Shown piece by piece: positions 1 through 5,410 of a DNA stretch of 5,410 nt; the stretch's first letter is position 1, and each line of letters opens with the position of its first letter. The position numbers and the translations under genes are program-made. Origin of the DNA: a virus (lineage: Duplodnaviria > Heunggongvirae > Uroviricota > Caudoviricetes). The DNA lies in IMG/VR virus record IMGVR_UViG_2534681651_000009. One strand, given 5' to 3'. A model generated the notes under the pieces. It worked only from the letters and a program-made list of their open reading frames with translations, searched no databases and was not told the origin of the DNA.

Positions 1-978
1 AGGTTACCTGGATTTTTCAAAGGCAAGATAACCGAATCCCATCTCGGCAAGGAGCTGCTGGAAAAAGTTGATCTGACGGAGGATAACGCCAGCAGACTGG
101 AGGAGTTTTCGAAAGAGTGGAAGGACGCTAACGATAAATGGAATGCCATGTGGGGCGTCAAAATTGAGCAGACCAAAGACGGCAGGCATTATGTCGCGGG
201 TATTGGCCTCAGCATGGAGGACACGGAGGAAGGCAAGCTGAGCCAGTTTCTGGTTGCCGCTAACCGTATCGCGTTTATTGACCCGGCAAACGGGAATGAA
301 ACGCCGATGTTTGTGGCGCAGGGCAACCAGATATTCATGAACGACGTGTTCCTGAAGCGCCTGACAGCCCCCACCATTACCAGCGGTGGCAGTCCTCCGG
401 TATTTTCCCTGACATCAGACGGAAAGCTGACCGCTAAAAATGCGGATATCAGTGGTAGTGTGAATGCGAACGCCGGGACGCTCAACAATGTCACGGTAAA
501 TGAAAACTGTACGATTAAGGGCATGCTGGAGGCGACTCAGGTCAGAGGTGACTTCGTTAAAGCTGTATCCAAATCATTTCCGAAACAGGCTGGTACGTGG
601 GGTAACACGGAAACACCAAACGGGACGGTTACAGTCACCATCAGCGATGATCATAACTTTGACCGTCAAATCATTATTCCGCCCATTATCTTTAACGGAA
701 TAGCGTATAGCGATCCGGGAAGTGGTAATAACCCGGGAGGTACAAGATACACGGGTTATGGTTTTGAAGTTCGCAAAAACGGTGTATTAATCGCATCCAG
801 AGAAACTAAAGGGGCCATTCCCGGTAGCTACAGTGCGGTTATTGATATGCCGAGTGGCAGGGGAAGCGTCACTCTGGAGTTTAAGGTTTTCCATAAAGGC
901 AATCAGTGGGCAGGTAATATCACCGACTGTACGGTGATTGTGACCAAAAAAGCCGCTTCCGGCATCAGTATTCGTTGA
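1..978 (+). CDS. J: Central tail fibre / host-specificity protein J, C-terminal ~326 codons (5'-partial; the ORF runs off the window start)
   Basis: Frame 1 is open from nt 1 with no stop until TGA at 976-978 (the ORF track lists only 148-978 from the first Met). Translation contains ...[45 protein letters not shown]..., which I recognise from memory as the C-terminal region of lambda gpJ. Sits directly upstream of lom, as in lambda. The last ~150 residues look divergent from my recollection of lambda J. Confidence 0.88.
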
Positions 979-1700: not shown

Positions 1701-1711
1701 GTGGAGTGGAT

Positions 1712-4114
1712 ATGGCAGCAGTAAAAATCTCAGGTGTGCTGAAAGATGGTGCGGGAAAACCAATACAGAACTGCACTATTCAACTGAAGGCAAAGCGTAA
1801 CAGCACCACGGTACTGGTCAACACAGTGGCCTCTAAAAATCCGGATGAAGCCGGGCGTTACAGCATGGATGTTGAGTATGGCCAGTACAGCGTCACCCTG
1901 CTGGTTGAAGGTTTTCCGCCTTCACATGCCGGAACCATTACCGTCTATGAAGGTTCCAGACCAGGTACGCTGAATGATTTTCTCGGTGCCATGACGGAAG
2001 ATGATGTCATGCCGGAGGCATTGCGTCGTTTTGAGGAAATGGTGGAAGAAGCGGCACGCAACGCTGAAGCCGCCTCTCAGAGCGCAGCGGCGGCAAAGAA
2101 ATCCGAAACTGCAGCGGCATCATCGAAGAACGCGGCGAAAACCTCAGAAACGAATGCAGCTAACAGCGCACAGGCGGCAGCGGCCTCGCAGACTGCATCG
2201 GCAAACTCCGCAACAGCAGCTAAAAAATCAGAAACCAACGCGAAAAATAGCGAGACAGCCGCAACGACGAGCGAAACCAACGCAAAGTCCAGCCAGACGG
2301 CAGCGAAGACCAGCGAAACGAATGCTAAAGCCAGTGAAACTGCAGCAAAAAACAGCCAGGTTTCAGCAGCCCAAAGCGAGAGCGCGGCAGCCGGTTCTGC
2401 GACTTCAGCAGCCGGATCAGCAACTGCTGCGGCTAACAGCCAGAAAGCTGCGAAGACGAGTGAAACTAACGCAAAGTCCAGCCAGACGGCAGCGAAGACC
2501 AGCGAAACGAATGCCAAAGCCAGTGAAACTGTGGCGAAAAGCAGTCAGGATGCAGCGGCTCAAAGCGAGAGTGCCGCAGCCAGTTCTGCAAGCGCGGCGG
2601 CTGCTTCTGCCACTGCATCAGCTAACAGTCAAAAAGCAGCAAAAACCAGTGAAACCAACGCAAAGGTGAGCGAAACAGCGGCTACGAACTCAGCGAAAGC
2701 ATCGGCAGCAAGCCAGACGGCAGCTAAAGCAAGCGAAGATGCAGCCAGAGAGTACGCAAGCCAGGCTGCGGAGCCGTATAAATATGTCTTACAGCCGTTG
2801 CCTGATGTGTGGATACCGTTTAACGATTCACTGGATATGATTACCGGGTTTGCTCCTGGATATAAGAGAATCACAGTTGGTGACGATGTTATTGCATTGC
2901 CGTCTGAAAAGGTTGTTTCATTTACCAGGGCGTCAACTGCAACGTATATAGATAAGTCTGGGTGTTTTGCTGAATCAGCGATAAATGAACCACGTTTTGA
3001 AAAAGATGGTCTGCTCATTGAAGGTCAGAGAACGAATACTTTTTCTTATACGAATACACCAGTATCGTGGAACTATGACACTGCTAACTTAACTATTACC
3101 ACGGGAGTTGATGAGTATGGTTTCAGTTATGGTTTGTTTGGCGTTAAAGAAACATCCACAACTGAAAGGGCGACATTAATTTCTACTGGATATACCAGGG
3201 TTATTTCAGTTTCGGCAAATGAATCAGTTACTTTATCCTGCAGAGTTAAAAAAGTAAGTGGGGATGGTATTATCACGTTGCGTCCAAGAATATCATATGT
3301 TAACGACGATGGCTCAAGTAACACACTGACCGCTGGCGCATATATTGATTGCGAGACTGGCGATATGTTGAGTTATTCTGGAGGTGAGGCGGCAACTTAT
3401 AACATATTCAGAGAGTCTAATGGATGGATTCGTGTTGAGTTTACCTACAAATCACCAGAAGCAAAAAATATGTATGGGCGTTTTGAGTTTGGAGCACATC
3501 AACGATCAATCAAGTCTGGCGATAAATTAATGTTAACAACCCCTCAATTCGAAAAGGGACTAAACGCGTCATCTTTTATCATCACAACAGAGGTCGGTGC
3601 CACGAGAGCAAGTGACCAGGTAATCATACCTATACCTTTCAATTGGGCAACTCCACCAGTTAGTGTTCTCATGGAAGTTAATGTTAATTGGGATTCTGAA
3701 ATGCCTAATTTAGAAGGCTCTGCGCGTTTGCTTAATATCTCAATTACAGGGGCGACGACTGAAGTTTCTGATGAAAGTTATATGTATTTTGGTTTTACCA
3801 ATCGTGGTAAAAGGCTAATTATCACCAATGGCAAAGGAACAAAAACAGAATATAAAGCATATGGGAATAGAGAGAAAAGGAAATTTGTTACTGGCTTTAA
3901 GTTTACAGAAGATAAACAGTTGCAGGTTGTTGTTGATGGAATTTTAGGTGGCAGCTCCCCGTCTCTGCATACATTGCAACGTTATACTGCCGGTAATATT
4001 AATATCGGTGGACAATCATCCAGTGGCAACAGACACCTGTTCGGTCATGTGAAAAATTTACGCATTTGGCATAAAGAATTAACTGAGGCACAAATGGGGG
4101 AGAGTATTAAATGA
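1712..4114 (+). CDS. stf: Side tail fibre (Stf-like) protein, ~800 aa, mosaic: lambda-Stf-type N-terminus, repetitive Ala/Ser/Thr-rich shaft, and a divergent low-GC C-terminal putative receptor-binding region
   Basis: ORF track gives 1706-4114 from a GTG; I prefer ATG 1712 because GGAG at 1703-1706 sits 5 nt upstream and the product then starts MAAVKISGVLKDG..., matching lambda Stf (orf-401) as I recall it. The first ~110 aa resemble lambda Stf. The shaft carries repeated K-[TSK]-SETNAK motifs. From about aa 350 the sequence is unrelated to the Gly/His-rich lambda Stf C-terminus and ends ...HLFGHVKNLRIWHKELTEAQMGESIK, a motif reminiscent of the last strand of LamG/concanavalin-like jelly-roll domains. 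Stop TGA at 4112-4114. Confidence 0.85.
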   Translation: MAAVKISGVLKDGAGKPIQNCTIQLKAKRNSTTVLVNTVASKNPDEAGRYSMDVEYGQYSVTLLVEGFPPSHAGTITVYEGSRPGTLNDFLGAMTEDDVMPEALRRFEEMVEEAARNAEAASQSAAAAKKSETAAASSKNAAKTSETNAANSAQAAAASQTASANSATAAKKSETNAKNSETAATTSETNAKSSQTAAKTSETNAKASETAAKNSQVSAAQSESAAAGSATSAAGSATAAANSQKAAKTSETNAKSSQTAAKTSETNAKASETVAKSSQDAAAQSESAAASSASAAAASATASANSQKAAKTSETNAKVSETAATNSAKASAASQTAAKASEDAAREYASQAAEPYKYVLQPLPDVWIPFNDSLDMITGFAPGYKRITVGDDVIALPSEKVVSFTRASTATYIDKSGCFAESAINEPRFEKDGLLIEGQRTNTFSYTNTPVSWNYDTANLTITTGVDEYGFSYGLFGVKETSTTERATLISTGYTRVISVSANESVTLSCRVKKVSGDGIITLRPRISYVNDDGSSNTLTAGAYIDCETGDMLSYSGGEAATYNIFRESNGWIRVEFTYKSPEAKNMYGRFEFGAHQRSIKSGDKLMLTTPQFEKGLNASSFIITTEVGATRASDQVIIPIPFNWATPPVSVLMEVNVNWDSEMPNLEGSARLLNISITGATTEVSDESYMYFGFTNRGKRLIITNGKGTKTEYKAYGNREKRKFVTGFKFTEDKQLQVVVDGILGGSSPSLHTLQRYTAGNINIGGQSSSGNRHLFGHVKNLRIWHKELTEAQMGESIK
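2279..2656 (+). repeat. In-frame tandem duplication (2 x 189 bp, period 63 codons) inside the fibre shaft, embedded in a larger low-complexity region (~2050-2760)
   Basis: AACGCAAAGTCCAGCCAGACGGCAGCGAAGACCAGCGAAACGAATGC occurs at 2279 and again at 2468 with one mismatch; the rest of each unit is similar but diverged. Protein-level copies are TSETNAKSSQTAAKTSETNAKASETAAK... and ...ASETVAK... A third partial copy begins near 2657. Confidence 0.85.
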
Positions 4115-4392
4115 AAGATTTAACACTCAAATTTGCAGACAGGACCGACTTTTCGACCTTTATGGATAGCATTGGTTATGAAGATGACGAGGTAATGCAG
4201 AACAATGTTCTCATTGATGTGATAGGTAACGTGTACAAAGAAACCGGAGAACTGACTGAAGATGGCGAGCCGGTATGTGTTAAGGAAGACGGATATTTTG
4301 TAAACGTGCGCATCATTAATGATGCAAAAAAATCGTCAATATTCGATAAATACGCGGTTGTTGTTGAGCATCAACTTCGTGGCTGGATGTGA
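4111..4392 (+). CDS. Hypothetical small acidic protein (93 aa), start-stop overlapped with stf; possible fibre accessory or chaperone, or a moron
   Basis: ATG 4111-4113 overlaps the stf stop TGA 4112-4114 (ATGA overlap), implying translational coupling. Product has 19 Asp/Glu against about 11 Lys/Arg and no hydrophobic segment. Low GC, like the stf 3' region. I do not recognise the family. Confidence 0.6.
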   Translation: MKDLTLKFADRTDFSTFMDSIGYEDDEVMQNNVLIDVIGNVYKETGELTEDGEPVCVKEDGYFVNVRIINDAKKSSIFDKYAVVVEHQLRGWM

Positions 4393-4401
4393 GGTAGAGA
4401 A

Positions 4402-5106
4402 ATGGCTACATCGACAGTAATTCCAGGAGATATCACCAAGCTAAAGGGGGATGTCAGTAAAGCTAAGGAAGATATTTCATCAATTAGCGGAAAAGTATCA
4501 ACGCTTCAGACTGATATGGACAGTGCAAAGCAGGATATCAGTACCAGATACACAAAAACAGAAGTGGATAATAAGCTGAAAAACAAAGTGGAAGTGAACG
4601 ATCTGGAAAGCGGTCGTTATGGCGGAGATTTTTATCCACTGACAGGTCGTGAAGCGTTTTATTTATGGGGATTGGGCACAACTACAGCGGCGGCAAATCT
4701 TTATCTTAATCCTGACCCTGCAATTTCGTCTGTGCTGCGGTCAACATCGTCTATCCGCTATAAACATTCAGTAGAGACGATAGATTCAGAGCACGCCGAT
4801 CTCATTTTCAGGATGCGCCCTGTGTGGTACAGGTCGCAATGCGAAAATGACAGGCGTGACTGGGGATTCTATGGATTGATTGCCGAGGAAGTTGGAGAAA
4901 TTGCCCCTCAGTTTGTACACTGGCGACCAGCCAACGAAGATGATGCACCGGAAACCATTTCCAGCAATGGCCTTGTTGCCGAAGGTGTAATGTACGAACG
5001 TCTGGTTGTTCCACTGATTCACCATATCCAGAAGCTGACTGAAAGAGTTGATGAACTTGAGTCAGAATTAAAGTTGTTATCCGTTTCCCGAAGCGATATC
5101 GGATAA
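4402..5106 (+). CDS. Coiled-coil protein with a C-terminal peptidase-S74-like intramolecular chaperone domain (234 aa), free-standing rather than fused to a fibre
   Basis: GAGG at 4391-4394 sits 7 nt upstream of ATG 4402. The N-terminal ~70 aa are heptad-like (KLKGDVSKAKEDISSISGKVSTLQTDMDSAKQDIS). The C-terminal ~120 aa match the S74 chaperone-of-endosialidase pattern as I recall it: S116-S-I-R-Y-K121 (Ser/Lys dyad spacing), MRPVWY, GLIAEEVGEIAPQFV, and YERLVVPLIHHIQKLTERVDELESEL. Stop TAA at 5104-5106. Confidence 0.7.
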   Translation: MATSTVIPGDITKLKGDVSKAKEDISSISGKVSTLQTDMDSAKQDISTRYTKTEVDNKLKNKVEVNDLESGRYGGDFYPLTGREAFYLWGLGTTTAAANLYLNPDPAISSVLRSTSSIRYKHSVETIDSEHADLIFRMRPVWYRSQCENDRRDWGFYGLIAEEVGEIAPQFVHWRPANEDDAPETISSNGLVAEGVMYERLVVPLIHHIQKLTERVDELESELKLLSVSRSDIG

Positions 5107-5116: not shown

Positions 5117-5410
5117 ATGGATATAACACCTTTCCTTCATGCACTTTGTGCTGTGGCTGCGCAGGTACTGGTTGGTCTTTTTACCGGAAACTGGGCTTAC
5201 GGGGCGATAGCTGGTTGTACGTTCTTCATTGCGCGTGAACACACCCAGGCAGAATATCGCTGGATTGAAATGTTTGGGCATGGCAAGCGAATGAATATGC
5301 CGTGGTGGGGCGGTTTTGATCCGCGCGCTTGGGATGTGGCAAGCCTGATGGATTTTGCTGTGCCGGTGGTGGCGTGTCTGCTGGTCTGGCTGTTGGTTAA
5401 TCGTGGGTGA
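5117..5410 (+). CDS. Hypothetical small integral membrane protein (97 aa, about two predicted TM helices); possible moron such as a superinfection-exclusion or membrane-acting protein
   Basis: Consensus SD upstream. Hydrophobic stretches at about aa 6-38 (FLHALCAVAAQVLVGLFTGNWAYGAIAGCTFFIA) and 75-95 (VASLMDFAVPVVACLLVWLLV) flank a charged/aromatic loop (EHTQAEYRWIEMFGHGKRMNMPWWGGFDPRAW). GC content returns to roughly 50% or more. Stop TGA at 5408-5410. Family not recognised. Confidence 0.6.
   Translation: MDITPFLHALCAVAAQVLVGLFTGNWAYGAIAGCTFFIAREHTQAEYRWIEMFGHGKRMNMPWWGGFDPRAWDVASLMDFAVPVVACLLVWLLVNRG

Follow-up and report, generated by a model that had tools for sequence, protein, structure and literature searches.

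A mosaic lectin-fold cassette and two partner genes at the side tail fibre locus of a lambdoid prophage

The side tail fibre gene and its departure from lambda

The window analysed here is a stretch of 5,410 nucleotides (nt) from a virus of the Caudoviricetes (IMG/VR record IMGVR_UViG_2534681651_000009) and was found to be a tail-end region from a lambdoid prophage. Encoded in it, all on one strand, are the C-terminal 276 amino acids (aa) of the central fibre protein J (Phage_Tail_Tip and Ig_GpJ_C domains), lom, an open reading frame (ORF) resembling the side tail fibre gene stf, and three further ORFs. Over its 3' half the window shares 99.9% identity with a prophage of E. coli AST215, and alleles spanning at least 80% of this half were present in 20 of 5,426 complete E. 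coli genomes. The subject of this report is the C-terminal part of the Stf protein (aa 362-802), which has been replaced relative to that of lambda, together with the two genes that follow stf. The features identified within stf were as follows.

1706-4114, + strand: stf, the side tail fibre gene; intact, 802 aa, taken from the ORF list, with a full-length match to phrog_1419 (1-793/793)
1718-2107, + strand: lambda-like N-terminal anchor of Stf (aa 5-134); Pfam PF08400 phage_tail_N, 222.7 bits, 61% identity to lambda orf-401
2108-2788, + strand: Ala/Ser/Thr-rich repeat shaft (aa 135-361); A+S+T 66%, aligning to lambda orf-401 and to the shaft of Gp22 of phage IrisVonRoten
2789-3037, + strand: conserved connector and recombination joint (aa 362-444: PLPDVWIPFNDS...FTRASTATY...EPRFEKDGLLIEGQRTN), with the highest conservation in the family
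3014-3610, + strand: first beta-sandwich, of the gene transfer agent (GTA) head-spike-fibre type (aa 437-635), with profile homology reaching ~aa 405-646
3536-3616, + strand: conserved junction strands TPQFEKGLNASSFIITTE...TRASD (aa 611-637), kept across 52 homologues and aligning to the head spike fibre of the Rhodobacter capsulatus GTA (RcGTA)
3767-4093, + strand: second beta-sandwich, LamG/concanavalin A (ConA)-like; Pfam match at aa 688-796, structural domain ~aa 645-802

The N-terminal part of Stf is that of a lambda-type side fibre, with a PF08400 anchor and a location after J and lom, the same locus as that of lambda Stf (orf-401 plus orf-314). The anchor and the Ala-rich shaft are homologous to those of lambda, with 61% identity to orf-401 over aa 5-285 (E 1e-77). 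The C-terminal half, however, is unrelated, as an earlier note made from the letters of the window had claimed. No alignment was obtained between Stf aa 362-802 and the gp37-like lambda orf-314 (best E 3.1); eight HxH motifs were counted in orf-314 and none in Stf 362-802; and orf-314 contains 11.8% Gly and 5.1% His, compared with 1.1% His in Stf 362-802. The window Stf has neither the C-terminal orf-314/gp37 homology nor the HxH metal-binding repeats of a lambda/T4 gp37-type tip. In place of the Tfa-type assembly gene of lambda, stf is followed by two genes, one for a 93-aa protein and one for a short fibre that bears an S74 chaperone domain, and no Tfa-family match was found in Pfam or NCBIfam for the ORFs downstream of stf.

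The GC content falls from 0.557 in the shaft (2108-2788) to 0.425-0.381 in 2789-4114 (0.425 in the connector), and this drop at 2789 marks a mosaic joint. Residue 362 begins in frame at 2789, one base before the start of 2790 that had been given for the region. DNA matches to other lambdoid stf genes end at ~2888 or ~3028, and a profile scan found the connector alone to be common to many representatives of the family. The difference from lambda Stf is a mosaic replacement. Residues 362-802 would constitute a horizontally exchanged receptor-binding cassette, made up of a connector of ~80 residues, a beta-sandwich of the GTA head-spike-fibre type and a C-terminal LamG/ConA-like beta-sandwich, in place of the gp37-like HxH tip of lambda and its Tfa chaperone; the conserved connector would serve also as a recombination linker.

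Upstream of the joint, the shaft contains tandem repeats (2231-2665, + strand; 189 bp x 2.2 and 42 bp x 2-3) which encode units of the AAKTSETNAK type, and its coding strand is extremely A-rich (AT skew ~0.6). Long alternative-frame or antisense ORFs over the shaft, at 2001-2669 and 2077-2517, were rejected as composition artefacts. The true start of stf is probably the ATG at 1712 rather than the listed GTG at 1706, judging from a GGAG 7 nt 5' of the ATG and from a predicted product beginning MAAVKISG, compared with MAVKISG in lambda. A T-run, terminator-like sequence of lom lies immediately 5' of it.

Two beta-sandwich domains and their candidate receptor

Although aa 362-802 had been described as one tip, two tandem beta-sandwich domains were found behind the conserved connector. 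The first (aa 437-635) belongs to NCBIfam NF048003 GTA_spike_fiber ('phage head spike fiber domain'), which it matched at 66.1 bits against a cutoff of 36. A family profile (A3) was built from 52 homologues of 27-90% identity; it aligned with the RcGTA head spike fibre Rcc01080 (6tb9_F3) from the FTRASTATY strand through TRASD (E 9.2e-37), and with the baseplate proteins Pa193 gp46 and E217 gp45 (E 2e-12). The internal motif which the earlier note had compared with other phage receptor-binding proteins, TTPQFEKGLNASSFIITTE, is present at aa 611-629 (nt 3536-3592) and is a true family signature: the pattern TPQxExG..ASSFIxT..TRASD is kept across the 52 homologues, and its aligned counterpart in the RcGTA head spike fibre is GAQLEAGAAVSSVIPTEAAAVTRAAD. 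The 'TTPQFEKG...' motif forms the closing strands of the first sandwich.

The C-terminal motif NLRIWHKELTEAQMGESIK, previously likened to the final strand of a LamG fold, was located at aa 784-802 (nt 4055-4111), and the likeness goes beyond chance. When the C-terminal region was scanned alone, aa 688-796 matched Pfam PF13385 Laminin_G_3 with an E of 3.3e-6 and 27.8 bits, the gathering threshold being 27.6; the same family was matched by 28 of the 52 homologues (best E 1.9e-11), and the precomputed Pfam tags of many database relatives are likewise Laminin_G_3. The last domain of the family profile reached the binding domain of botulinum toxin D (BoNT/D HCN) with an E of 0.017. Solved entries were reached only by the family profile; a single-sequence phmmer search of aa 362-802 against PDB sequences returned nothing at E<=10.

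The AlphaFold2 (AF2) model comprised 34 strands and one short helix (pLDDT 91.6, pTM 0.88), in keeping with the description of the region as beta-rich, while its description as aromatic-rich held only mildly (F+W+Y 10.2%). The C-terminal domain has the two-sheet beta-sandwich (jelly-roll) fold of the ConA-like superfamily. Foldseek matches of the model were to tandem galectins, the carbohydrate-binding module CBM40 and BoNT HCN; these and the other fold-search matches apply to the model as a whole. Among predicted viral structures, the two-domain arrangement is seen again (TM 0.6-0.9) in numerous phage proteins that bear a ConA-like label. The lectin fold was therefore supported by structure prediction and by profile matches, the checks which had been suggested for it, and neither these nor the fold searches indicated a non-lectin fold. 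No homology to a fibre tip with a known protein receptor was found with phmmer against the PDB or with the family profile.

The inference of a lectin fold for the Stf tip was sound, although as a result it stays at the level of annotation. The RefSeq name of the window Stf is 'phage head spike fiber domain-containing protein', that of a 59%-identical homologue (P0022) is 'LamG-like jellyroll fold domain-containing protein', and a 'galectin-like domain' has been published for another homologue, so that the fold assignment adds little to what these names convey.

The cassette is widely distributed. It was present in 217 phage records, and a full HMMER scan returned 1,433 cluster representatives at E<=0.001. 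Identity was ~40-43% with T5-like lateral fibres, 36% with phage 21 and 28% with rV5-like fibres, and the cassette was also found in Drexlerviridae and Dhillonvirus. In P0019 and P0042 (E. marmotae) it is fused to P2/Mu-type fibre N-termini (PF12571 and PF03406), and in CarlMeissner (L005) it is carried on a 1479-aa rV5-like lateral fibre; the cassette thus moves between siphovirus and myovirus fibres. Along its length, conservation is concentrated in three stretches: aa 362-441 in the connector, aa 612-640 at the junction and aa 770-795 in the last strands. The sandwich bodies (442-611 and 642-770) are highly variable and form its most variable parts. Stf tips of lambdoid prophages show identities of 45 to 100%.

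This pattern of hypervariable bodies within a conserved frame, together with portability among fibre types and a terminal position in phage 21, fits a host-range determinant. We consider it rather likely that the cassette is a lectin-type receptor-binding head which gives reversible binding to a variable surface polysaccharide, and a carbohydrate receptor for the Stf tip, as put forward in the earlier note, is plausible on sequence grounds. The carbohydrate reading gains support from the fact that the middle domain is homologous to the RcGTA head spike fibre, for which experiments have shown binding to capsular polysaccharide: cells with a capsule were bound (100%) far more than a capsule-less mutant (~4%) (PMC10218006; PMC7296036). 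With two ConA-like sandwiches per chain, each a hypervariable body between conserved framing strands, three chains would provide three heads per trimeric fibre, and the binding of O-antigen, capsule or a similar glycan would be lectin-like, reversible and multivalent. Such binding by Stf would keep the phage at the cell surface until the tip of J engages its outer-membrane protein.

A contrast with lambda had been implied in proposing a glycan receptor, and it is a weak one, as lambda-type Stf proteins have themselves been reported as glycan binders: the Stf of Ur-lambda binds O16 (PMC11990801) and that of Gifsy-1 binds Gal II of the lipopolysaccharide core (PMC12312913). Gifsy-1 Stf was considered as a homologue of the window Stf tip and was rejected, as it is of the lambda type.

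Several points weigh against glycan binding by the cassette. The Laminin_G_3 score is marginal, only 0.2 bits over the threshold, and the family was not listed in the Pfam scan of full-length Stf. Protein ligands, too, are bound by ConA-like and LamG domains, as in the case of neurexin LNS domains and BoNT HCN, and it is well established that many domains of the LamG, LNS and BoNT HCN types, the last also among the fold matches here, take part in protein-protein contacts. The ConA-like domains of Stf might accordingly bind an outer-membrane protein, as has been proposed of OmpC for Ur-lambda Stf. Lambda side fibres are classically assigned to OmpC in work cited in PMC11990801. A protein receptor nonetheless appears improbable to us: the closest characterised homologue, the RcGTA fibre, binds capsule polysaccharide; the best-ranked fold matches are to carbohydrate-binding modules; an allele diversity as high as that found here fits variable glycans better than conserved porins; and the searches described above yielded no tip with a known protein receptor. 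Two further points against glycan binding come from the literature. The RcGTA head spike fibre has been resolved experimentally at residues 2-10 only, so that its homologous domain is without an experimental structure (PMC7296036), and recognition of O16 in IrisVonRoten, JakobBernoulli and Dhillonvirus phages is credited mainly to distal fibres of the S74 type rather than to the lectin-like domain.

In a further reading the region would be an enzyme, with one ConA-like domain breaking down O-antigen or capsule in the manner of a tailspike, either as a glycanase or as a lyase (GH16, PL7 or PL20-like). This we judge very improbable. The GH16 motif (ExDxxE / ExDxE) was not found in aa 362-802 in a regular-expression search; the best fold matches (AbnA domain 4, CBM40, BoNT HCN and pentraxins) are non-catalytic; the invariant residues lie in frame strands which are structural and which the RcGTA fibre, not an enzyme, also possesses; and no CAZy-type Pfam match was obtained, a CBM_4_9 match being seen in just one of the 52 family members. 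A depolymerase role was rejected as the principal reading on account of the absent GH16 motif and the non-catalytic fold matches.

With regard to the central fibre, the J C-terminus in the window (148-978, + strand) is near-identical to lambda J over the first ~120 aa of the fragment and diverges over its last ~150 residues, the receptor-binding domain. From its sequence, J probably targets a receptor other than the LamB of lambda.

The three-gene module

The less obvious point at this locus is that a three-gene module is present in lambdoid prophages. The two genes that follow stf are listed below.

4111-4392, + strand: 93-aa partner protein; ATGA overlap with the stf stop (translationally coupled), phrog_1361, no other family annotation
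4402-5106, + strand: 234-aa short fibre; MATSTVIPGDITKLK as the conserved N-terminal motif, coiled-coil stretch, C-terminal S74 intramolecular chaperone domain (PF13884) at aa 116-172

The arrangement was surveyed in 80 related viral loci, which were fetched, and in six phage loci with the cassette; counts are given for 87 related loci. A gene for a protein of ~93 aa lies directly 3' of the fibre gene in nearly all of these 87, mostly overlapping its stop, and the third gene is present in most. The 93-aa protein is 82-94% identical among lambdoid prophages, as against 45-100% for the Stf tip. Its AF2 model, from a shallow alignment of 82-100% identity, is poor, with a pLDDT of 53. The N-terminal motif of the third gene (MATxTVIPxDITKLK) was found in 60 phage records and lies exactly 294 nt past the fibre stop wherever both matches were listed.

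The 234-aa protein carries SSIRYK at aa 116, with predicted cleavage at Ser116, which would leave a mature part of ~115 aa. It matches only the last 240 positions of phrog_3299 (1385 aa), and its N-terminus and chaperone domain align to Gp24 of IrisVonRoten and to homologues in tonn and PhiR46_1. The third gene has two main alleles, of 234 aa and 346 aa, which are freely combined with the Stf-tip alleles: the 346-aa allele takes the place of the 234-aa allele in about half of the related loci, independently of the Stf tip, and one Stf tip allele (99% identical) occurs with both. In a preparation of phage SIA3lw, the homologous fibre and the S74 protein were both identified by mass spectrometry of gel bands (PMC12752171).

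The earlier note had treated aa 362-802 as the end of the fibre. With two further conserved genes in the module, the region may be a branch point, either in addition or in place of that role. The translationally coupled 93-aa protein would probably be an assembly factor or adaptor, and the 234-aa short fibre would mature by way of its S74 chaperone domain and probably dock through its conserved N-terminus on the end of Stf, to make a branched fibre. Both proteins would probably attach to the conserved frame of Stf; the occurrence of the same Stf tip with both third-gene alleles places any docking surface in the frame and not in the bodies.

Taken to its limit, this arrangement would make the cassette a branch platform only, in which the sandwiches and connector serve mainly for the docking of the 93-aa protein and of the S74 short fibre, the latter is the real receptor-binding protein, and the lectin-like domains do not bind the host. 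The strict linkage of the three genes across phage families at a constant spacing, the conserved N-terminus of the third gene, the modelling of IrisVonRoten Gp22 as a 'proximal fiber' that bears a distal fibre, and the precedent of the branched LtfA/LtfB fibres (PMC4728585) are all in its favour. Against it, conservation would be expected of a mere scaffold, but no part of the locus varies more than the sandwich bodies, and any docking surface would lie in the conserved frame. The mature short fibre here would, moreover, be only ~115 aa long. Finally, loci of the phage 21 type (L004, which is phage 21 itself, L021 and L022) keep the cassette and a ~92-aa gene, followed by a membrane-protein gene, and have no S74 fibre gene, which indicates that the cassette can be a terminal element and that the third component is dispensable or has been lost. 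Overall, a purely structural role for the cassette seems unlikely.

If the lectin-type head and the branched assembly are combined, many E. coli lambdoid prophages may carry a three-component branched side fibre, in which three hypervariable double-lectin heads set O-antigen or capsule specificity and a small adaptor plus a separately reassorting mini-fibre add a second specificity. We put this forward tentatively, as a possibility that we consider somewhat doubtful as a whole; if true, the branched side fibre would amount to a combinatorial two-receptor glycan code for temperate phages. For T5-like phages, lateral fibres of a branched kind have already been proposed, while no description of branched side fibres in lambdoid phages was found in the literature searched, nor was anything relevant found there on LamG domains in side tail or tail fibres or on the side tail fibre of phage 21.

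Side-fibre tips determine which E. coli surface types are within reach of temperate phages, and thus bear on prophage spread; the prophages concerned include Shiga toxin (Stx)-converting relatives which share the upstream part of the window stf. Recognition of exchangeable lectin-fold domains and two partner genes in this common type of Stf should aid the prediction of host range from sequence, and the same knowledge should aid the engineering of lambda-based vectors retargeted through Stf.

The last ORF in the window (5117-5410, + strand), which runs past its end, belongs to phrog_1443 and in most related loci comes after the fibre module. In phage 21 the homologue carries the annotation of a putative membrane protein with two transmembrane segments.

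Comparison with known systems

The branched fibres of phages DT57C and DT571-2 resemble the proposed assembly in that a proximal fibre (LtfA) carries a second fibre (LtfB) by means of the conserved N-terminus of the latter, both fibres can bear receptor-binding domains, and the distal fibres mature through an S74 chaperone domain (PMC4728585). They differ in that LtfA itself ends in an S74 chaperone domain, with no reported LamG or GTA-spike cassette, and the family profile showed no significant similarity to a fibre of the DT57C/DT571-2 type (8hqz_d; E 0.51).

RcGTA Rcc01080 (NF048003) shares the homologous middle domain, including the strands RASTATY, PRF[ED], LLxE, QxExG and TRAxD. It is, however, a monomeric head decoration held by a 10-residue N-terminal peptide, whereas the domain in the window sits terminally on a trimeric tail fibre, with an additional LamG domain after it. 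The Pseudomonas phage proteins Pa193 gp46 and E217 gp45 (PDB 9b45 and 8env) are myovirus baseplate wedge components and not fibre tips.

The closest system is the lateral tail fibre module Gp22-Gp23-Gp24 of IrisVonRoten (Bas32, Tequintavirus), in which homologues of all three window genes are collinear. Gp22 is 41% identical to Stf, the whole C-terminal cassette included; the small protein (bas32_0023, 92 aa) shares 38% identity with the 93-aa protein; and the 574-aa fibre Gp24 has its first 33 residues and its S74 chaperone domain in common with the 234-aa protein. Using AlphaFold-Multimer, Humolli et al. (2025) described Gp22 as a proximal fibre bearing a distal T-shaped fibre (PMC11990801), and its protruding C-terminal 'galectin-like domain' was proposed as an extra receptor-binding domain (PMC11990801). 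The two systems differ in the N-terminal anchor, which is of the T5 type in IrisVonRoten and of the lambda type (PF08400) in the window, and in the distal protein, a 574-aa T-shaped fibre with two receptor-binding domains compared with a protein of 234 aa; and, unlike IrisVonRoten, the phage of the window is temperate and lambdoid.

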